From sequence record PP534475.1: a DNA stretch of 64,000 bases; one strand, 5' to 3'. A program made the translations under genes and the position numbers. This document shows positions 8,401 to 22,003 of this stretch, piece after piece (within the stretch, counting starts at the first letter, position 1; each line of letters begins with the position of its first letter). Origin of the DNA: Escherichia phage YJin-2024a. Below the pieces are notes generated by a model. The model made no database searches. It was not told the origin of the DNA and worked only from the letters and a program-made list of their open reading frames with translations.

Positions 8401-8882
8401 TACTTCTTACCTCCAGTAGCTAGGGAAGTAATTAAGTCCATGTAGTTTTGATCCCCAGCTCCAGCAATAATATTGTTCTGGATATTGGTCTGGTTAGCTG
8501 GAGTACGGGCTGCTGCTTTCACTTTCTCCAACTCTACCATCATTTTCATTTCTTCCATTTTCATTTTATGTGCTTTCCAGAGAATATCCATAATATCCTG
8601 GTCAGAACCCATGCCAGTCTCTTCTAGTTCTTCCAGCTTACGTTTAATAACTTCATCTAGAACACCAAATAAACGATCCCTATTACGGAAACCACTTTCC
8701 ATAAAAATATCATTTAAGTAGTTCTTAACTTCACTACGATTCATAATATCTCGAAAAGCAATTTCGGACATTCCAAGGCTACGTGCGGCAGAAGGCACAT
8801 CGCTACCGCACTGTAAATAAGCTTCAATCACATCCATCCCTTCAGGGGACATAAGATCTGGTACTAATACATCATTTGCCAT
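8400..8882 (-). CDS. putative terminase small subunit / HTH DNA-binding protein
   Basis: 160 aa; helix-turn-helix-like [16 protein letters not shown]; TAATG overlap with the terminase large subunit start. Confidence 0.45.
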
Positions 8883-8892
8883 ATTTCCTCCT

Positions 8893-10680
8893 TTAGGTAA
8901 GGCGTTGAACTGTTACTCTTAATCTTGGTAGGAAAATAGCTGCAGCCTCATCTGCATGAATAATTACGCCCAATTCAGCATTACCATTTCCTAGATTTTT
9001 AATAGTATAAATATATCCGTTTCTTCTAAATGTTAACTCATCAGGTCTACTTGCCCAAGTTTGAGTATAACTATATGCAGTAGTGGAGTGATAAGGGACT
9101 AAGTATCCAGGAGGTAAGGTTAATATTTGATGGAATATTCCATCACCTTCCGTGTAACTATGCTGTCTTCTTCCTTGTACTTGCCAAGCAGCACCACCGT
9201 ATGTGCGTATGGCTCCTCCAGCCGTATTAATATTACCCATAATAACTTCCGTAGTTAATATTACCGTTGCGTTAGCGTTAGGCAATCCTAATCCTATGGT
9301 GGCCAAAGCTCTATAGTAGTTGCCTGCTCCAGGATACGCGGGGGTTATATCATCACCAACGTAGGTGCTAGCAACATTATTAGGAAATAGTCTTAAAGGT
9401 ACAGTACTAGGACTCCACACAGCTCCATGCTCATTACCGATAGTGTTATTACTTGAGTTTACGTACCATTGCTTACCTGCTCCGAATTTGTAAATACTGA
9501 TTTGAGACTTGGCTCCTCCATAATCTACAGGAGACCATAAAGATCCATTACTAGATCCTACAATTTCACATCTTGCAGTGGTATCCCCGAAGGCTCCAGT
9601 GTACGCTGCGTTATTTCCAATGTACTCCATATCTGGCCTATAGCCTAAGTTACCAAAAGCATTTTGGTTGATAAACTTATATCCAGTATTTGGTAAACTA
9701 ACCCCTTTTATAGTAAAATTAGATGGAGTTATAAGTATATCTGACCCAGTAAATGGATTACCAGATACACCCATATTACCATTAGAGTACCTTAGATTAA
9801 GTACATACCAAATAACCTTAGTAGGAGTTATGTTATACCAATCCTGCACATACACTTTCTTAGCGGCCTGTGCTGCTAGATTAGATGTTGAACCTTTACA
9901 TATATAAACCTTATCAGGATACGTAGGAGATTGGTATAATAAGTTAACATTAGCTGGTACTGTGCCCTTTTTACCTACGTAACCTCGTATATTAGAGTTA
10001 CAAACATAGAACCAATTATGCCCCCTATGGGCGGCCCCTATAGGAGCTTGCCAATTAGGATGCCAGTAGTCAGCATTACCACCGTCTATAGGTACTGTAG
10101 ATGCTCCTGCTGGAAATCCTGCTAAAGTCCATGCCCTACCTATAGCCTCACCAGCATATGCTCCTCCCGGCCTATATAAATTAAACCCGGAGGCTTGAGA
10201 TATGGTACCACCTGTACCCTGCCTAGCAATTGATTCTTCATGGCCTAAACCAGAGTTATAAATATAGGTGCCATGTGCTAAACTATTACCTGATGCAAAA
10301 GCTGACGTAAGACCTACTTCTGCACCTGCCCTACCAATAGGCGGATCTTCAAAAAATGCAGTAAATTGACCAACTTGAGACTGAGTACCATTAAGAAAAG
10401 CCCTATGAGTACCATTAATCTCAATAGCAGTTAGTATAACTCTACCTGGGTCATTGGATTTAATATTTATTATGTCAGAGGGCATCTGACATACAAAAAA
10501 CCCATTTCCAGCATTTCCTAATCCAGCCTCATAAGTGCCATCAACTAGGACAAATGGCATATCACTATGAAAAATACTATTGGCATTTGGACTATAATGA
10601 CGATTAATGTCACCACCAGATTCAGTATTTAAAGATAGTACGGTCTTACCATCGCTATATTTTCCAGCGAAAAAACCCAT
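8893..10680 (-). CDS. receptor-binding tail protein (pb5/Oad-like) or tail fibre
   Basis: 595 aa, Gly/Asn/Tyr-rich; last late gene before the repeat region; divergent lipoprotein gene next to it, as recalled for T5 oad-llp. Confidence 0.5.
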
Positions 10681-10734: not shown

Positions 10735-10765
10735 AGATTCATAAATTAGAAATGGAGAGATAAAT

Positions 10766-11032
10766 ATGAAAAAGTTTGTGATTGCACTAGTTGCCGCAGT
10801 TATGTTATCTGGTTGTGCACCCGCTCCCAAACCATTTTGTACTGGATTTGTAAAATCTTTTGGTGGTGCGGGAGAAGAACATTACGGTCTCAAGATTCAA
10901 AAAGTTCGTATTAAGGGAGATCGCTTCCCAGTAGTACAGCTCCGTACTAAGTTTGGGTGGTGGGATCTCAGTCAGTTTGACCTTAAATATGGTGATTGTA
11001 AATTTAAACTAGAGCAATCTAACTACCTGTAA
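10766..11032 (+). CDS. lipoprotein, candidate Llp-like receptor-blocking (lytic conversion) protein
   Basis: Signal peptide with lipobox MLSGC; 88 aa; divergent from the receptor-binding protein gene. Confidence 0.55.
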   Translation: MKKFVIALVAAVMLSGCAPAPKPFCTGFVKSFGGAGEEHYGLKIQKVRIKGDRFPVVQLRTKFGWWDLSQFDLKYGDCKFKLEQSNYL

Positions 11033-11145
11033 TTAGTATAAAGCAAAAAGACATCCAAGTAAACTAAATTTTTTATTTCTTGAATGGTATATTGGCAGAA
11101 ACCACTATGTAAGAAAAGTAGAAGTCCTTCTAGGAAGTCACAAGC

Positions 11146-11328
11146 ATGGTTGGTTATGCACATATTTTAAAATATCATATTTATTGGAGCATGAAAGATA
11201 TGTCAAACAAAAGAAAGAATAGACGCGGAGAAGTGTATGATAGCTGGATAAATAGTTTTGGGTTCGGAACTATCTTATTCTTTATTTTCGTAGGTTTTTG
11301 GTTAGCAGCTATGGCGGGGTGGATTTAA
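11146..11328 (+). CDS. small membrane protein
   Basis: 60 aa; C-terminal hydrophobic helix; first of four overlapping small ORFs. Confidence 0.4.
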   Translation: MVGYAHILKYHIYWSMKDMSNKRKNRRGEVYDSWINSFGFGTILFFIFVGFWLAAMAGWI

Positions 11329-12015: not shown

Positions 12016-12750
12016 TTATGCGACTTTTAGTTTCTCAATATATTGTTGCGGGCTGCAACTATATTCCGCGCGTTCTTCCTCGGTCATACTTTCCCAGCAT
12101 AACTTCAATCGATCGGCTAGAAATTGATAATCATTATCATCGTCGAGAGATTCATCAATAAAGGTTCCGCCTATCAATGCCACGCCGATGGATAGAATAT
12201 CATTAACGGCTTGCGCATCTAGCGTTTTAAATCCGTATGACGCCGCCGCTGATAATACACCTTTATGATCATCAATCATTGTAAAATCAGCGTTCGGATA
12301 TAGTTGCTTGAATAGCTCAAAGTAATGGCTTTTATATATATCGTCCTTGCTGTGGTATATCTCGCTAACCTTATCAGCCGTAAAATATTTGTGAAGTGTA
12401 TCGCGGGAAAACACGCGGATATTAGTATCCCCACGCCCGCGCAATCCTTGTTTGCGTAGGAAGTAATAATCTGACTTGCTCATCAGTCGAGCGGTACAAA
12501 TAATGTTTAAAGTGTTTGCGTCATTCATGCACTGGCGCATATATTCCACCAATGGCAATAAGGTATCTTGCATAATTAAATCATGCTTGCAAGCCTCATT
12601 TTTATACTTATTTAAATCTAAATTACCCTCGCTATCAAAGCAAGGTGCTACACGATGGAACGAATTAATGATTGTGCCATCAAGATCCCAGATCATGACA
12701 CGGGAAATATGCGGGAAATTACGGGTAATATTCGTTTTAACTTGATTCAT
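12016..12750 (-). CDS. dmp: 5'-deoxyribonucleotidase (HAD superfamily), Dmp-like
   Basis: HAD motif I WDLDGTI; start placed at the internal Met with GGAGA RBS (244 aa). Confidence 0.7.
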   Translation of the reverse strand: MNQVKTNITRNFPHISRVMIWDLDGTIINSFHRVAPCFDSEGNLDLNKYKNEACKHDLIMQDTLLPLVEYMRQCMNDANTLNIICTARLMSKSDYYFLRKQGLRGRGDTNIRVFSRDTLHKYFTADKVSEIYHSKDDIYKSHYFELFKQLYPNADFTMIDDHKGVLSAAASYGFKTLDAQAVNDILSIGVALIGGTFIDESLDDDNDYQFLADRLKLCWESMTEEERAEYSCSPQQYIEKLKVA

Positions 12751-12830
12751 TTTGTTACGTTCTCCATTAAAGGGATTTAGTTTATCCAGCATTACCCGCT
12801 ATTTATAAGCGGGTAATAATAAATCAACTA

Positions 12831-13288: not shown

Positions 13289-14959
13289 TTATGCGAAAAA
13301 TTTGCCGTTTTTAAAGTCAATCAAAGTGCGCTGACCGTTCGCATAGGTAATTAAATGCGTTTGCGTCCAGCTTGACGCGCCAACGTTGTAACCCATATCG
13401 AGGGAACCAGCAACGCCCGCGGTATATACACCGCCGTAAATGCTTGCCGTATGCGTATGCCCCGTGTTTAACTTGCCCAATTTTTTAAATTGCTTCGGAT
13501 TGCCACGGCTGCCGTTAATGCCGTTGTGACCGTGTACGCCGCATTCAATGCCTGCAATTTTAAATGATTGGTCAGTCGTTAGGAAAATTGCGTTAAACTC
13601 GCAACCTGCAACCGTACGCAGCGCATAATCTAGCACGTTGAAAGTATCGTCATGATTACCGATTGCCGCGTAAATCGCAGCATTAAGGCGGTGATACAGT
13701 TCCGCGTTGGCTGGATCGTCTTTAATGTTAGCATTGCGATCATCAAGCCAACGAGAAAGCGCCAAATCGTGGTTTGATTCCACAATGATTGTTTGACTAA
13801 AATCACGTTCCATTGATTCCAGCACGCGCCCGGTGTCGATCAGATCATCAATAACCTTATCACGTCCGGCTGCATACTGTTTCGCTAGAAATACACCAGA
13901 CGCGCGGTTGTGATGGTTGCGTGATGTAAAATCATGCACGTCATGGACGAATTGATATTTTGGTTTGAGAATATCCACTAGCCCATAAGTATCACCGTGA
14001 CCCCATGACGCAGCGGCGCACTCCTCGTCTAATTTTTCGGCGTGAATATCGCCATATTGCAAGCCTAAAACATGCCCCGTTGTTTCAAAGCATCCGGTGG
14101 GAGTAGCGCAAACGTTCAGATCGTAAAACATGCCGCTTTCGTCCATTGTTTCAAGCTGGCGCACAAAAAACTCACCGTCTTCGTCGAACTCAACAATCAG
14201 CGCACCGTAATTATGCAATGCTTCCGCTTTTTGCCCTGCTTTCTGCTGAATGTAGTTTTTAAGCGTTGCCGTTCCGGTTGAATACATGCGGCGTACTACT
14301 TCACCTTTGAGAGCTGGGACGCTTTCGGCGGTGATTTTAGCGTGACCAATTGCCAGACCTTCAAGATTAAGCGCCGTTGCAGTTTCTGCAAATCCAGATA
14401 GCGGGTAATCTGCGGTGGGCAAAACATTAATTTCAGCCATGAAAGCGAAACGGCGGTTATTTAAAAACACGTTTTTGCTGCAAATATATTTATCAAATGC
14501 GGAATCATATTTTACACCGTCTGCGCCTTCACCATTTTGAAAGCCGTTTTTGTTATAAATATACTTAGAAACAAGCAAATCAGCGCCGATAAATTGGGCA
14601 TATTGTTCAAGCGAGGCTAAAAAGTTTTTATGAGGGAAAGTATTATTCTGAATCGATGTAATAATAAAGCGTTTGCCTTGTTTTACTTCCCACTGTTCAA
14701 CCGTGCTGGAAATAATTCCAGCCGCTTCGGGGCGCTCGTCGTTTTTAATGGCTTTTACAGCTTTCGCCGCTTTTGGTTTCGCTGGTTTATTTGCTTCTAA
14801 CCAATCGCAAATTGCGGTCGAGTGCTTCGTTGTGTCATATACCGCTTTAGAAATATCGTCACAAACTTCCAGCTTGGTGGCGCGCAGACGTTTACCGTAG
14901 AAATTAAAGTCAGCGGCCAGTTTCAGGATAACGGTTTGTTTTTCTGCGGAAAAAATCAT
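13289..14959 (-). CDS. A1: A1-like pre-early protein, calcineurin-like metallophosphoesterase
   Basis: GDIHA, GHGDTYG, SNHD and GHTH phosphoesterase motifs; 556 aa from the internal Met, the length I recall for T5 A1. Confidence 0.75.
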   Translation of the reverse strand: MIFSAEKQTVILKLAADFNFYGKRLRATKLEVCDDISKAVYDTTKHSTAICDWLEANKPAKPKAAKAVKAIKNDERPEAAGIISSTVEQWEVKQGKRFIITSIQNNTFPHKNFLASLEQYAQFIGADLLVSKYIYNKNGFQNGEGADGVKYDSAFDKYICSKNVFLNNRRFAFMAEINVLPTADYPLSGFAETATALNLEGLAIGHAKITAESVPALKGEVVRRMYSTGTATLKNYIQQKAGQKAEALHNYGALIVEFDEDGEFFVRQLETMDESGMFYDLNVCATPTGCFETTGHVLGLQYGDIHAEKLDEECAAASWGHGDTYGLVDILKPKYQFVHDVHDFTSRNHHNRASGVFLAKQYAAGRDKVIDDLIDTGRVLESMERDFSQTIIVESNHDLALSRWLDDRNANIKDDPANAELYHRLNAAIYAAIGNHDDTFNVLDYALRTVAGCEFNAIFLTTDQSFKIAGIECGVHGHNGINGSRGNPKQFKKLGKLNTGHTHTASIYGGVYTAGVAGSLDMGYNVGASSWTQTHLITYANGQRTLIDFKNGKFFA

Positions 14960-15048
14960 AATAATAAACTCCATTAAAGGGACTAGGTTAATAATGGCAA
15001 TGTTGCCAAATATAACGCCTTGAATAATAGGCGTTATAATTTGCAACA

Positions 15049-15246
15049 TTAATTTAAAGGCATCAGGCTAGAACTAACACCACAAACAATGGCAGCAATA
15101 AAACAAATCAGACCTAAACGCTTTGCCAATATTGATTTACGTTTAAAATAATACGAATCTAAATCATTTTGAAAATATGCGAACAATAATGAAGCCGCCA
15201 TAATAAATAAGCCTAGAATGAGCGATTCAGTGGGGTAAAAGATCAT
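15049..15246 (-). CDS. small membrane protein
   Basis: Hydrophobic 65 aa; start placed at the ATG preceded by the conserved pre-early leader (the ORF track begins at an upstream GTG). Confidence 0.4.
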   Translation of the reverse strand: MIFYPTESLILGLFIMAASLLFAYFQNDLDSYYFKRKSILAKRLGLICFIAAIVCGVSSSLMPLN

Positions 15247-15303: not shown

Positions 15304-15711
15304 TTATTCACCTGCGGCCTGTTTTACCTCATCGGCAACGCCTAGCAGTTGCGCCACGGCGTCCAACGTTTCTAATTTTGCGCTTTCCAGTGATGCCAGA
15401 TCATCGGCGTCCTTGATAATGCCGGAATCAATAGCGTGTTTTGCAATTACTCGCACATAGTGAGCTTTACGGATTGAACTACCGCCGCCAACTTTGCGCG
15501 GCTTGTCGCTTTTCTGGTAGGCTTTCGCGCTGGTCAATTTCGAACGAACTGACACGGGAGAAGTAGCGCCCACTGCCTTTGCGATCTCTTTCAAGCCGTC
15601 GCTATTTGCAAAATCTAGCCCGTTTTCATTGATTAGTTGCTGATACATGGAAACAGCCTGCTGGGTGTTTTCTTCGTTCCAGGAAAATTTTGCGGTTTTT
15701 GCGTTAGTCAT
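15304..15711 (-). CDS. A2: A2-like pre-early protein
   Basis: 135 aa, basic C-terminal half; immediately downstream of A1; conserved leader upstream. Confidence 0.55.
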   Translation of the reverse strand: MTNAKTAKFSWNEENTQQAVSMYQQLINENGLDFANSDGLKEIAKAVGATSPVSVRSKLTSAKAYQKSDKPRKVGGGSSIRKAHYVRVIAKHAIDSGIIKDADDLASLESAKLETLDAVAQLLGVADEVKQAAGE

Positions 15712-17270: not shown

Positions 17271-17280
17271 CGGCCTAAGT

Positions 17281-17410
17281 GAGAACCACTATCATTTAAG
17301 TTATCCACAACGTTTTCCACAGCACAAAATAACTTGACACGATAGGCGGCGATATGAGGGCTTTTACACATACTTATCCACAGGTTATCCTACTGTATAA
17401 ATATACAGGG
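17281..17410. repeat. inverted repeat arm A with DnaA-box motifs
   Basis: Two perfect TTATCCACA boxes (about 17301 and 17375); reverse complement matches 19575..19710. Confidence 0.75.
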
Positions 17411-19127: not shown

Positions 19128-19322
19128 ATGAGCAATAAAATTATTGTAACCAAAACTAGTACAATGGTTGATATTTTTTACGTGCCCGATACGCCGGAAA
19201 ACCGACAAGCGGTTGAGCGTGGGGAATATGATAAAGTGATCTATGATCACGATGGTTATTATCAGTATTTGGTGGATTCATATGGGGAGGAGGAAAAAAT
19301 CACGCATCGACTACCCGACTAA
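19128..19322 (+). CDS. hypothetical acidic protein (64 aa)
   Basis: ORF with upstream ATG context. Confidence 0.4.
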   Translation: MSNKIIVTKTSTMVDIFYVPDTPENRQAVERGEYDKVIYDHDGYYQYLVDSYGEEEKITHRLPD

Positions 19323-19365
19323 TAATCACGGGGCGCAACTATCCGGAAGTGCCCCCAATTTTCAA

Positions 19366-19384
19366 ATGATAATCATTCTCATTT
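19366..19384. promoter_or_regulatory. palindromic site AATGATAATCATTCTCATT (full-site version of the half-site repeat downstream)
   Basis: Near-perfect dyad built from the AATGAGAAT half-site. Confidence 0.5.
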
Positions 19385-19574
19385 GACCGCGCCCGCGATG
19401 GTTAGCCTGCTAATGGTTAGGGTGTTACGTGTCGCCTTGTGTGATCGTTAGCGGGCTAACTAATTTTCAAGCCTCCTCCAATTTTGCCCTTGTTTTAGTA
19501 CCTCCAACAAAATTAAACGCGTTAGAATGCGTTTGAGGGCGTTTTAACGCTATATTAGAACTATTCACTGCGTA

Positions 19575-19710
19575 GGAATACTGTATATTTATACAGTAGG
19601 ATAAGCTGTGGATAAGTCTGTTGATAACGCCTCAAAATGGCTAGGATTTTGTCAAGTCAAATCGTGCTGTTGATAAGTCTGTGAATAACTTAAATAACAG
19701 TGTTTCTCAC
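19575..19710. repeat. inverted repeat arm B with DnaA-box motifs
   Basis: Reverse complement aligns with 17281..17410 over about 130 bp; TGTGGATAA at about 19607. Confidence 0.75.
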
Positions 19711-19719
19711 TTCCATTCT

Positions 19720-19937
19720 TAAATGAGAATCATTATCGTTCGCATTCCGCTTTTTAAATGAGAATCGTTTCACTTCTTAAATGAGAATCATTCCGCTTTT
19801 TAAATGCGAATCATTATCATTTGCATTCCACTTCTTAAATGAGAATCATTCCGCTTTTTAAATGAGATTGATTCTCGTTTCACTTTCTAAATGCGAATTA
19901 TTATCATTCTCATTCCGCTTTTTAAATGAGAATGATT
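19720..19937 (+). repeat. array of 8 direct repeats TAAATG(A/C)GAAT(C/G)ATT
   Basis: Copies at about 19720, 19755, 19778, 19801, 19836, 19859, 19888, 19923. Confidence 0.8.
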
Positions 19938-19983
19938 CTTATTATCATTCGTATTTAGCGCAGGGCAATTGCCCTGCGCTTTT

Positions 19984-20583
19984 GTGCAAATCCGACATTG
20001 CTCCACGGGTGTTACGTGCGGGTGTATGTGCAAATCCGACAGGATTTTTGGTAGTGTGCAAATCCGACCCGAAAAATTTTTATAGTGTGCAAATCCGACA
20101 ATGAATTTTCCCAAAAACTCCAGCAATCTCGAACTGCGTTCGAATCCTGTGGGGTATGTGCAAATCCGACATGGTTTTTCTAGGATTAAGATGTGCGAAT
20201 CCGACAAGATTTTTATGACTTCGATTGGAGGGTGTGTGATTATGTGAGTTTGGGGAGAAGATGAGAGAGTGAGAGAAACTTGGGGGAACTGTGGGAGAGG
20301 CGCATGTTTGGTGCGGAGCACCCGATTTGCGGGGATTTTGGGGAAGAGTTGAGAAGATTTGGGTTAATTTGAGATTAGTGGAGATAAAGTAAAATTTTAT
20401 TAGCAAAATGGGGCAAAATAGCTTGACAAGTGAAAATTTCTGTGGCTCTAAAAACTCAGGTAAACATGGGCCTTCGGCCCGAAATAATGCTGCTATTTTC
20501 ATGAGATTATATGTTCCTAAAAACTTAGGCAATTGTGCAAATCCGACCATAAATTTCTAGAAACACAATGTGCAAATCCGACA
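19984..20583 (+). repeat. array of 8 direct repeats GTGCAAATCCGAC(A/C)
   Basis: Copies at about 19984, 20028, 20056, 20087, 20158, 20193, 20535, 20570, each followed by a short T-rich tract. Confidence 0.8.
20226..20400 (+). repeat. purine-rich block with several G4-5 tracts, almost no C on the plus strand
   Basis: gggagaag, tgggggaac, gcggggatt, ttggggaag within about 170 nt. Confidence 0.6.
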
Positions 20584-21118
20584 ATAAAATCCAGAAATGT
20601 GTTTTCAAAAAATGTCTCCTAGAAATAACCGCCCTCCCCATAACCGCCCTGTATTAAACCGCCTAGTATATGTTCCTAGAAACTTAGGAGAACCGCCCAC
20701 TAGAAGTATGATATCTCGTGAGAACTCTGGAGTTTCTAGGAAAGTGTTGTGCCATCCTAGCAGATGAGTGGCAACCGGTGTATCATCTTGAATGTAAATT
20801 ATGTGGACAAAAGTTTTACCTTTTATTTAAATAAAAGATCCCCAGGGTTCTCATATAGAGCTTTGCCCCCGCCAGAAGGTCTCGTGGTGTTTCTAGCAAT
20901 TTATATTAAATTACTTATTAACTTGTCCTGTCGCTCCGTATCCTCCGCTACAAGTTAGTAATTTTAAATTACTGAACCACCACACCTTCTGTGTGGCAAC
21001 TCTAAATGGTTAATTCTATTAACTCATAGAGTTATGATAACATACATTTAGCTATCTGTCAACGAGAGTTTGTATTTGAGTCTCGGTACAGGTATTGTGC
21101 ACCGAGACATGCAGGATC

Positions 21119-22003
21119 TTACAGTAACTCTTGGTATGCTTTTTGATACGCCTCAGTGTCAGTAGGTGTACCTTTTGCTAGTGCAATTAATTCATCTGTT
21201 ATCTGAATATTCGTATTATAACGTGTGTGGAACTCGTTAGGAATTTCTAGGTATCTATTGATGAATGCTGCAGCAAGCGGTGTGACTAAACCAATCTCTA
21301 GAGATAGCTTAACTTGTTTTTCGTAGATTAAATATTGAGAATCAGATGGGATTGGTTGGGTTACGTCAGTTTTCTCCGGTTCTTTTTCTGGAAGCAATGG
21401 ATTATTATATAATGCTTCATCTGGAAGCACAGATTTACGCTCTTTAAATATATAAGTTTCTAGATCCGATGCTTTAGATCCTGAGTATACCGCAAAGACG
21501 CTAGCTTTACCCTGGGATGCCCTAACTGGTAAATAACTAGTAGGATAGCTTCTTAATGCATCATGGAATGGACTTCCTGAGTACTTGTACGTATCCCCAT
21601 AGAGATCATCAATATTCATTCGTTCATCTTCAAAAATGTGAAAAGAGCTAAATGATGGGATAGTAAAGTATTCCATCTGTAACCCATAAACTAAGAAACG
21701 GTGTGCATATGCGCTAATCTTTAAGACTGTGAATGCTTTTTCACCTTCCTTATAAGAATTGCCCTTTGAAGTAACTTGATAACGTTTACAAAACATCTCT
21801 ACTAGACGTTTCTCATTAATATTAAGGGTGGAGTACAGTCGTCCACTTAATCCTATAAGTGCATCGAACATAAATGCTAGTTTATCTTTTTCTTCCTGAG
21901 ATAGTTCTGGAAACGGTAATACTTTCGCATTAGGAACATTATTGTTCTCTTTAGGTTTTGTTTTACCAGCATTTTGTCTTAGTTTATCTTTAAAGTTATA
22001 CAT
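21119..22003 (-). CDS. hypothetical early protein (294 aa)
   Basis: ATG with GGGAG RBS; first gene after the repeat region. Confidence 0.6.
   Translation of the reverse strand: MYNFKDKLRQNAGKTKPKENNNVPNAKVLPFPELSQEEKDKLAFMFDALIGLSGRLYSTLNINEKRLVEMFCKRYQVTSKGNSYKEGEKAFTVLKISAYAHRFLVYGLQMEYFTIPSFSSFHIFEDERMNIDDLYGDTYKYSGSPFHDALRSYPTSYLPVRASQGKASVFAVYSGSKASDLETYIFKERKSVLPDEALYNNPLLPEKEPEKTDVTQPIPSDSQYLIYEKQVKLSLEIGLVTPLAAAFINRYLEIPNEFHTRYNTNIQITDELIALAKGTPTDTEAYQKAYQELL

Follow-up and report, generated by a model that had tools for sequence, protein, structure and literature searches.

A conserved cluster of predicted host Fur sites in the injection stop signal region of the T5-like Escherichia phage YJin-2024a

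The DNA analysed here, called the window in this text, comprises 64,000 nucleotides of Escherichia phage YJin-2024a (sequence record PP534475.1), a T5-like phage (Tequintavirus). An array of eight direct repeats and, 337 bp upstream of it, an isolated dyad of the same motif are located in a stretch poor in open reading frames (ORFs) that separates the last pre-early ORF (19128-19322) from the first large ORF of the early region (21119-22003, minus strand). The locus is the already annotated injection stop signal (iss) region of T5, a point that was absent from an earlier, sequence-only reading of this DNA. Strong candidate sites for Fur, the ferric uptake regulator and metal sensor of the host, were found in both elements, and we lean to the view that array and dyad together form a conserved super-cluster of predicted operator-grade sites for host Fur in a T5-type iss region. 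That Fur binds to these predicted sites appears to us quite likely.

In a mismatch search, the 15-mer TAAATGAGAATCATT was found in eight direct copies on the plus strand within 19720-19937, a span of 218 bp, with zero to two mismatches each and with start-to-start intervals of 35, 23, 23, 35, 23, 29 and 35 bp, in agreement with the sequence-only reading, which had described eight direct copies of a 15-nt motif in about 220 bp. When up to two mismatches were allowed, 10 matches were found in the 64-kb window, all of them in the array and the upstream dyad, the latter contributing two that overlap, and the chance level estimated from 100 dinucleotide shuffles was 0.38 +/- 0.62, with a maximum of 2. 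The search for the half-site elsewhere, which had also been proposed, rendered zero matches at up to two mismatches in the rest of the window, and the motif is conserved in related genomes, as described below. The array is recovered as well by Tandem Repeats Finder, with periods of 23, 35 and 81 bp. The upstream element, AATGATAATCATTCTCATT, is an imperfect 9-1-9 dyad with complementarity at 8 of 9 arm positions; it had been correctly recognised as a dyad, and its coordinates, given as 19366-19384, have to be moved one base to the left (Table 1).

The 15-mer comprises the left arm of the dyad, the centre and the beginning of the right arm. In five of the eight units (19720, 19801, 19859, 19888, and 19923) the right arm is present, giving a full 19-bp dyad, and these units score 14-22 bits with the Fur matrix described below. 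Each of the four 35-bp units (19720, 19801, 19888, and 19923) combines a full 19-bp dyad with a second dyad shifted by 6 bp, the two making up a 25-bp palindrome, and the resulting pairs of sites (19722/19728, 19803/19809, 19890/19896, and 19925/19931) show the same pattern in relatives; the unit at 19859 contains a single full dyad of 14.1 bits. The 23-bp units (19755, 19778, and 19836) keep the left arm and the centre and have the right arm swapped for CCGCTT, with scores of at most 10 bits. Of the arrangement proposed earlier, an array of half-sites plus one palindromic full site, the isolated full site is retained, but the term half-sites has to be abandoned, since five of the eight units are full dyads and four of them have a partner offset by 6 bp.

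Table 1. Coordinates of the repeat array, the isolated dyad and other features of the window (bits are scores with the Fur matrix)
Feature	Position	Strand	Remarks
Fur-box-like array, eight direct repeat units	19720-19949	+	11 sites of at least 10 bits, each 19 bp
Copies of TAAATGAGAATCATT, start (mismatches)	19720 (0), 19755 (1), 19778 (0), 19801 (1), 19836 (0), 19859 (2), 19888 (2), 19923 (1)	+	
Predicted array sites, start (bits)	19722 (21.8), 19728 (13.2), 19780 (10.0), 19803 (20.0), 19809 (14.1), 19838 (10.0), 19861 (14.1), 19890 (17.6), 19896 (15.0), 19925 (19.7), 19931 (18.1)		
Isolated Fur-box dyad AATGATAATCATTCTCATT	19365-19383	n/a	23.8 bits; best Fur-matrix site of the window
Terminator-like hairpin with short U-run	19330-19362	+	Fold -13.8 kcal/mol, z -2.1
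LexA (SOS) box-like palindrome TACTGTATATTTATACAGTA	19579-19598	n/a	0 mismatches to TACTGTATATWTATACAGTA; 0 expected by chance
DnaA boxes, two pairs	19607, 19619, 19668, 19680 (19607-19688)	-	IRD'-spacer-IRC' of Davison
Hairpin AGCGCAGGGCAATTGCCCTGCGCT, perfect 10-bp stem, then TTTTG	19957-19985	+	-24.4 kcal/mol, z -5.2; terminator-like
DRD repeats TGTGCAAATCCGAC, eight copies, irregular spacing	Six in 19983-20205, two in 20534-20582	+	Apart from the Fur array
dmp	12016-12792	-	
A1	13289-15049	-	
A2	15304-15711	-	

The Fur matrix was obtained by a palindrome-constrained expectation-maximisation motif search, carried out de novo and with no consensus supplied, on 15 intergenic regions of Fur-controlled genes of E. 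coli K-12 (fepA-fes, fepD-entS, fepB-entC, fhuA, fur, tonB, cirA, exbB, feoA, ryhB, sodA, fecI, fecA, fhuF, and fiu), every 19-mer of four of these regions serving as a seed. It converged on AATGATAATCATTATCATT, which is the 7-1-7 Fur box. The classical consensus of the Fur box is GATAATGATAATCATTATC, or tGATAATnATTATCa in its 7-1-7 form, and the upstream dyad has as its core AATGATAATCATT, which forms the centre of GATAATGATAATCATTATC. PMC2189734 lists most of the training regions among the footprinted or predicted targets of Fur. The top site in each of the 15 regions scored between 7.9 and 23.1 bits, all 21 sites of at least 12 bits found in 101.5 kb of E. coli DNA fell in the training regions, and the aerobactin promoter, which was outside the training set, scored 20.4 bits. 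When the matrix was applied to the window, the dyad at 19365 ranked first in the whole 64 kb; 18 of its 19 positions are identical to the learned consensus, and 18 of 19 are also identical to the ryhB operator. The next-ranked sites of the array are those at 19722, 19803, 19925, 19931 and 19890, in this order. Six of the eight top-scoring sites of the window, and 12 sites of at least 10 bits, are located within 19365-19949, and 10 of the 16 window sites of at least 12 bits within 19350-19960; random 64-kb sequence of the same dinucleotide content contained 1.2 sites of at least 12 bits, its best site scoring 12.9 bits on average and 18.6 bits at the maximum of 100 trials. A further site, ATTGATAATCATTATCATC, with 19.0 bits, is located at 12123-12141 within the coding part of dmp, in codons for an Asp/Asn-rich stretch; it was dismissed as a Fur site, being probably a by-product of dmp coding.

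With 17.6-23.8 bits, as compared to 20.4 bits for iucA, the strongest 19-bp dyads of the phage score like proven operators and can be regarded as putative Fur boxes. Four pairs of overlapping sites are offset by exactly 6 bp, and an offset of 6 bp (or 3 bp) is typical of Fur clusters, that of 6 bp being found in every footprinted Fur cluster of E. coli (Chen et al. 2007, PMC2189734). The array contains 11 sites of at least 10 bits, amounting to 174 bits per 250 bp; the maximum among the E. coli loci scanned is 4 sites and 64-68 bits (fhuF, fepB-entC), so that the array exceeds the richest of these operators about 2.5-fold. Moreover, positions 19722-19736 show a 15-nt identity with a sequence located about 20 bp upstream of iucA in 795 plasmids, which we take to be the primary aerobactin Fur operator. 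A curated model, that of the small RNA PrrF in Rfam, whose 5' end includes a Fur-box promoter, points the same way by aligning to 19851-19986, at a score far below its family threshold (see below). The aerobactin operator of ColV-type plasmids resembles the phage array in the identical core AATGAGAATCATTAT, the overlapping sites, a length sufficient for several dimers and the presence of weaker secondary sites. It differs in that it overlaps a promoter, controls a gene and has 2 sites of at least 10 bits, versus 11 per 250 bp in the phage, whose array has no evident promoter or downstream gene. The E. coli Fur clusters such as those of fhuF and fepB-entC share with the array the 19-bp dyad, the 6-bp phasing and comparable site scores, but they comprise up to 14 sites over about 140 bp and 83% of them overlap a sigma-70 promoter (Chen et al. 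2007, PMC2189734), whereas the phage array extends over about 230 bp in a non-promoter context and is made of tandem duplication units. The simplest reading of these data is that the binder would be host Fur, and not a small phage protein. ArgR, FNR/CRP, Zur and IHF, which were considered on the basis of half-site spacing alone, have a spacing unlike that of the 7-1-7 dyad.

Conservation was analysed in 40 T5-like phage loci retrieved with the A1 protein (72-98% A1 identity) and in 28 distinct LexA-to-DRD sequences, namely the window and 27 relatives that include T5, Klebsiella phages and one Pantoea phage. In all loci reaching the region a cluster of Fur sites is followed by DRD repeats, and in most of them, T5 included, a LexA-like box and DnaA boxes precede the cluster in the same order; in T5 the LexA-like box is located at 9411, the DnaA boxes at 9437-9518, the Fur sites at 9552-9715 (with 23.8 bits at 9656) and the DRD repeats from 9752. 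All 28 distinct sequences keep 4-9 sites of at least 12 bits, represented by 62 different site sequences, and the latter differ most at the central base and at positions 6 and 14, where the Fur matrix carries the least information. The number of units differs among relatives through unit-sized insertions and deletions that do not preserve the reading frame. Because these changes break the frame, coding by the overlapping ORFs 19862-20104 (plus strand) and 19887-20321 (minus strand) was ruled out, some relatives being annotated with hypothetical proteins at this place. The isolated site occupies exactly position -216 relative to the LexA-like box in 15 of the 28 sequences and is found within 420 bp of it in 20, with 19-24 bits; its central base varies between C and G, which is tolerated by the Fur matrix, and it has no counterpart in T5.

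As a control for selection, the array of the window was randomly mutated to the divergence of each relative (6-36%) in 300 simulations. The Fur density amounted to 44-76 bits per 100 bp in the real relatives, versus 7-47 in the randomly mutated arrays, and for nearly all relatives with more than 14% divergence the observed Fur density was reached in less than 1% of the 300 simulations. As judged from these sequence comparisons, the predicted Fur score of the array is maintained under selection. The general idea of the sequence-only reading, that these are sites for a dimeric protein consisting of a strong isolated site and a possibly cooperative array, is supported by dyad symmetry, conservation and selection.

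Beyond these relatives the array fades. It is present in the Pantoea phage (A1 66% identical), but a Proteus phage (A1 42%) keeps the LexA-like and DnaA boxes with at most one Fur-like site, and a Vibrio phage (A1 32%) keeps the same boxes with no array beside the module. In an Aeromonas phage (A1 34%), five dispersed sites of 15-25 bits are found among DnaA boxes in pre-early non-coding DNA. The LexA-like box beside DnaA boxes is conserved in the T5, Pantoea, Proteus, Vibrio and Aeromonas relatives. The deepest part of the region is, according to these comparisons, the putative LexA-like/DnaA module, and the predicted Fur array is characteristic of the Markadamsvirinae. At the equivalent place, beside the LexA-like/DnaA module, other tandem arrays were observed, which have an 8-bp period in Vibrio phage Chester (L055 1-115) and Aeromonas phage AhSzq-1 (L056 3507-3778), and periods of 15-18 bp and 46 bp in Proteus phage M4H10_20 (L054 5538-5725 and 6704-6857), the 46-bp unit containing TGATTATCATT.

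The iss of T5, or Repeat Region 3 of the left terminal repeat, is said to have been described by Heusterspreute et al. in 1987 and by Wang et al. in 2005. A 1-kb query around the array matched 446 phage records, mostly from Salmonella and Escherichia Tequintavirus and relatives, and in Salmonella phage Spc35 the match (8506-9411) lies inside the annotated left terminal repeat, which "comprises first-step-transfer DNA". The genes dmp, A1 and A2 are present in the window (Table 1), as are pb5 and llp, located just outside the terminal repeat. In the T5 record AY543070 the iss is annotated at 9140-10149, a terminator at 9275-9296 and the major single-strand interruption at 9748/9749 on the minus strand. 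A comparison of 25 T5-like phages carried out by Davison (bioRxiv 10.1101/866236) assigned to Repeat Region 3 palindromes, an IRD'-spacer-IRC' element with DnaA boxes, DRE and DRC repeats and nine DRD repeats, found its functions impossible to guess, and placed the calculated 7.9% shear point (T5 9618) inside these repeats. The T5 array at 9552-9715 brackets this shear point and stops about 30 bp short of the annotated major nick.

The region of YJin-2024a belongs to this type, since it is untranslated, is located at the right end of the terminal repeat and follows the last pre-early ORF. The order of its elements, a palindrome, two pairs of DnaA boxes with a fixed spacer, direct repeats with palindromes, and DRD repeats, is shared by the window, T5 and the 26 other distinct relatives. 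Locus and order thus coincide with those of the T5 iss (palindrome, DnaA-box pairs, the direct repeats DRE and DRC with palE-J, nick hairpin, and DRD); the differences are that the YJin-2024a array has more units (eight) as well as an isolated site absent from T5, and that the published descriptions consulted consist of repeats and DnaA boxes with the function left open and mention neither Fur nor LexA. The first hairpin (19330-19362) lies directly after the last pre-early ORF and corresponds in position to the T5 terminator; the isolated Fur site is located immediately behind it. The TACTGTATATTTATACAGTA box is located 120 bp upstream of the array, and the paired DnaA boxes start 12 bp apart, each being 9 bp long and separated from its partner by 3 bp. 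The module recurs in inverted orientation at 17278-17410, the Repeat Region 2 of Davison, where a Fur-like site of 16.3 bits is accompanied by DnaA boxes (17301, 17313 and 17374) and by a LexA-like box with 2 mismatches at 17391-17410.

On the other side of the array, the second hairpin (19957-19985) is conserved, with compensatory stem changes in one relative (L036), and contains on both of its strands, at 19957-19964 and, on the opposite strand, at 19973-19980, the consensus R/GCGCRGG described for the major nicks of T5 (PMC3517423). The T5 nick at 9748/9749 corresponds to about 19980/19981 of the window, so that a major-nick consensus that appears homologous to the 8% nick of T5 adjoins the array; the hairpin could be a terminator, a nicking site or both. 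The DRD repeats straddle the end of the terminal repeat, for which a comparison between both ends of phage SP01 (loci L013/L014) gave an estimate of about 20448, and their position suggests a role in terminase recognition or in duplication of the repeat. Between the two DRD groups, at 20220-20400, the plus strand contains a purine-rich and G-rich tract (ggagggtgtgtg...ggggagaag...gggggaac...) that coincides with a positive GC skew. The strongest promoter-like match of the region, TTGACA-17-TATCAT with an upstream TG (11 of 12 positions), is located at 21034-21062 on the minus strand and points leftward from the end of the early ORFs into about 1 kb of ORF-poor DNA with DRD repeats.

Judging from the sequence and from established Fur biochemistry, metal-loaded Fur dimers would recognise each 19-bp 7-1-7 dyad. 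In the 35-bp units a second dimer could be placed on the opposite face of the helix by means of the site offset by 6 bp, giving two dimers per 25-bp palindrome, and cooperative binding, of the kind seen on the long aerobactin operator, would fill the weaker 23-bp units. The outcome would be a segment of about 230 bp coated by at least a dozen dimers, plus one very strong isolated site behind the pre-early terminator. Occupancy would report the iron status of the host, because Fur binds only when metal-loaded. The fact that two plus-strand terminators bracket sites for three abundant host DNA-binding proteins, at the place where transfer pauses, suggests a barrier: the Fur-coated segment, the LexA box, the four DnaA boxes and the two terminators might constitute a barrier of host proteins at the boundary of the first-step-transfer DNA. 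We favour the reading that such a barrier would stop rightward RNA polymerase, and possibly other translocating enzymes, from reaching or pulling in the DNA that is still in the virion. RNA polymerase could be held off in this way until the pre-early proteins have disarmed the host, or a paused complex might be stabilised until A1 and A2 release it, or both. A contribution of the Fur array to a pause or barrier is a tentative possibility, and the more specific proposal that the T5 injection stop has its host component in Fur loaded on the array, with LexA and DnaA at the neighbouring sites, is unlikely.

Several points weigh against these proposals, some of them against Fur binding and others against its suggested role. 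The case for Fur binding rests wholly on sequence, and the simulation of selection ignores phylogenetic non-independence and alignment bias, its effect being large nonetheless. The spacer CCGCTTTTT between the sites is also fairly conserved, for which Fur binding alone does not account; concerted evolution or a second ligand could be involved. The usual role of a Fur box is missing, because the promoter matches are weak and not above shuffles: 12 matches to sigma-70 promoters at 9 of 12 positions were found in and around the array, as compared to 8.8 +/- 3.2 in shuffled sequence, and at this locus the sites do not overlap the -35 and -10 elements of an iron-regulated gene, the hexamers being weak, the -35 not conserved and no ORF present before the hairpin. 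T5 plates normally on fur mutants, and Fur is therefore non-essential to the phage. The cells encountered by T5-like phages, as by phages with iron-regulated receptors, are mostly starved of iron, a state in which the activity of Fur is lowest. Nor is it obvious that a protein of the cytoplasm, bound to DNA already inside the cell, would withstand capsid pressure. Finally, the array is absent from the Vibrio and Proteus relatives and therefore cannot be the universal core of a two-step mechanism.

It can also be the case that the repeats are sites for a phage protein that releases or sets the injection pause, be it A2, a pre-early DNA-binding dimer, A1 or another small pre-early protein, and that the resemblance to Fur boxes is a coincidence or reflects a deliberate competition for the same sites; small pre-early proteins had been named as candidate binders in the sequence-only reading. 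Second-step transfer depends on both A1 and A2, the latter goes under the name of a DNA-binding protein and is conserved wherever the array is present, and the conserved spacer CCGCTTTTT suggests a recognition unit longer than a Fur box. We consider this alternative improbable, since the Fur match is far above chance and at the level of the best natural operators of E. coli, the 62 site variants vary most at the centre and at positions 6 and 14, where the Fur matrix is most tolerant, and A2 homologues are encoded by Vibrio and Proteus phages that lack the array. In addition, a local Pfam scan of the ten pre-early ORFs rendered neither a Fur domain nor any other DNA-binding domain. A2 matched no family in that scan; in a large-database search it was assigned to a family of its own, PF26822. 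Its predicted structure (predicted local distance difference test, pLDDT, 84.7) is all-helical, with weak, non-significant matches to helix-turn-helix and metal-repressor folds (best E = 0.5 among PDB neighbours), and shows no Fur-like fold. A phage-encoded Fur-like protein was rejected on the negative results of the Pfam scan of the ten pre-early ORFs and of the A2 fold search.

A second possibility is that the array constitutes a Fur-repressed promoter for a phage transcript of about 30-70 nt that would end at the 19957-19985 hairpin, this being a small RNA similar to PrrF or RyhB or an attenuated leader. The Rfam model of PrrF (RF00444), which includes a Fur-box promoter at its 5' end and a terminator, aligns to 19851-19986 with an E value of 0.009, and that of rliI aligns with an E value of 0.0004; moreover, the putative promoters TTCACT-17-TATCAT (19879-19907) and TTTAAA-16-TATCAT (19921-19948) overlap strong Fur sites, and the hairpin and its U-run are strong and conserved. 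However, the Rfam scores are far below the gathering thresholds (29 versus 90 bits for PrrF, and 24 versus 45 for rliI), and most of the PrrF alignment comes from the Fur box and the hairpin of the terminator. Promoter-like matches are as numerous in shuffles, the -35 hexamers are not conserved and the last TATCAT is lost in several relatives; besides, one to three sites suffice for repression, so that twelve would be unneeded. We hold this possibility to be quite improbable, and known RNA families were rejected, as all matches were below threshold and driven by the Fur box plus terminator.

The repeats could also be structural or replicative elements unrelated to Fur, such as iterons, an AT-rich unwinding element of a plasmid-like origin, or elements for duplication, packaging or recombination of the terminal repeat. 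Theta-type origins such as those of P1, F and pSC101 contain iterons, direct repeats of about 20 bp spaced by about two helical turns, together with DnaA boxes, and direct repeats spaced by about 23 bp beside four DnaA boxes resemble them. The array adjoins the major nick, with about 500-730 bp between it and the estimated terminal-repeat end, and distant relatives have other repeat arrays at the same place. Unlike iteron origins, however, the phage array has irregular spacing (23, 29 and 35 bp), dyad units in place of asymmetric ones, no initiator gene nearby and no Rep-like domain in the neighbouring ORFs, and it is not a mapped origin; the origins of T5 are near the middle of the genome and its replication genes outside the first-step DNA (literature per Davison, bioRxiv 10.1101/866236). 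An explanation of this kind, which accounts neither for the identity of the core with the Fur consensus nor for the selection on the Fur score, seems very improbable. The least probable of the alternatives is a decoy in which the genome copies present after replication (hundreds, with two repeats of about 12 sites apiece) would sequester Fur and shift iron regulation, which would fit a number and strength of sites exceeding the needs of promoter regulation, as well as the more general phage strategy suggested by an unrelated contig that ends in a larger array of perfect Fur boxes (see below), but T5-like phages degrade the host DNA and shut off host transcription within minutes, so that de-repression of host genes cannot help the phage, and no Fur-controlled phage promoter was found in the window.

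With respect to previous work, the repeats themselves have already been described as a component of the iss, and the identity of their motif as a Fur box appears to be unreported. No report linking the T5 stop signal to Fur or LexA was found in the literature searched, the primary descriptions of 1987 and 2015 being outside it, and papers published in 2020-2026 continue to present the stop signal as a set of repeats, palindromes and DnaA boxes that might meet host components. The arrest of T5 transfer after 8% of the genome has been an open question since the 1960s, and the identification of putative Fur and LexA sites names specific, dispensable host proteins, which makes the idea testable with existing strains, assays and T5 genome editing. 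If Fur binds, this would be the largest known natural cluster of Fur sites, located outside any promoter, and a case of a virulent phage using the metal sensor of its host on its own DNA. If it does not, the array would still be a strongly selected protein-binding module, with A2 as the prime candidate.

Stretches with the perfect Fur 19-mer are rare in viral DNA, only 82 being found among 2.9 million viral contigs. One contig (L073, IMGVR_UViG_3300033068_002045) contains at its end, at 10759-11325, 20 sites that reach 12 bits or more with the Fur matrix, seven being perfect 19-mers, with an 89-bp period. It derives from an unrelated phage with a large terminase that shares 64% identity with its counterparts in Xanthomonas phage Xp15 and Acinetobacter phage HHU4, and this independent super-array of Fur boxes is located about 400 bp upstream of a structural/packaging operon. 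Its position hints that recruitment of Fur to genome ends might be a wider phage strategy, and arrays of predicted Fur boxes in phage genomes may be a wider phenomenon. Two further contigs, L129 (4273-4528) and L119 (815-1070), contain two inverted clusters of near-perfect Fur boxes each, with about 230 bp between perfect 19-mers, and in L129 the clusters flank a GC-rich stretch of about 190 bp.

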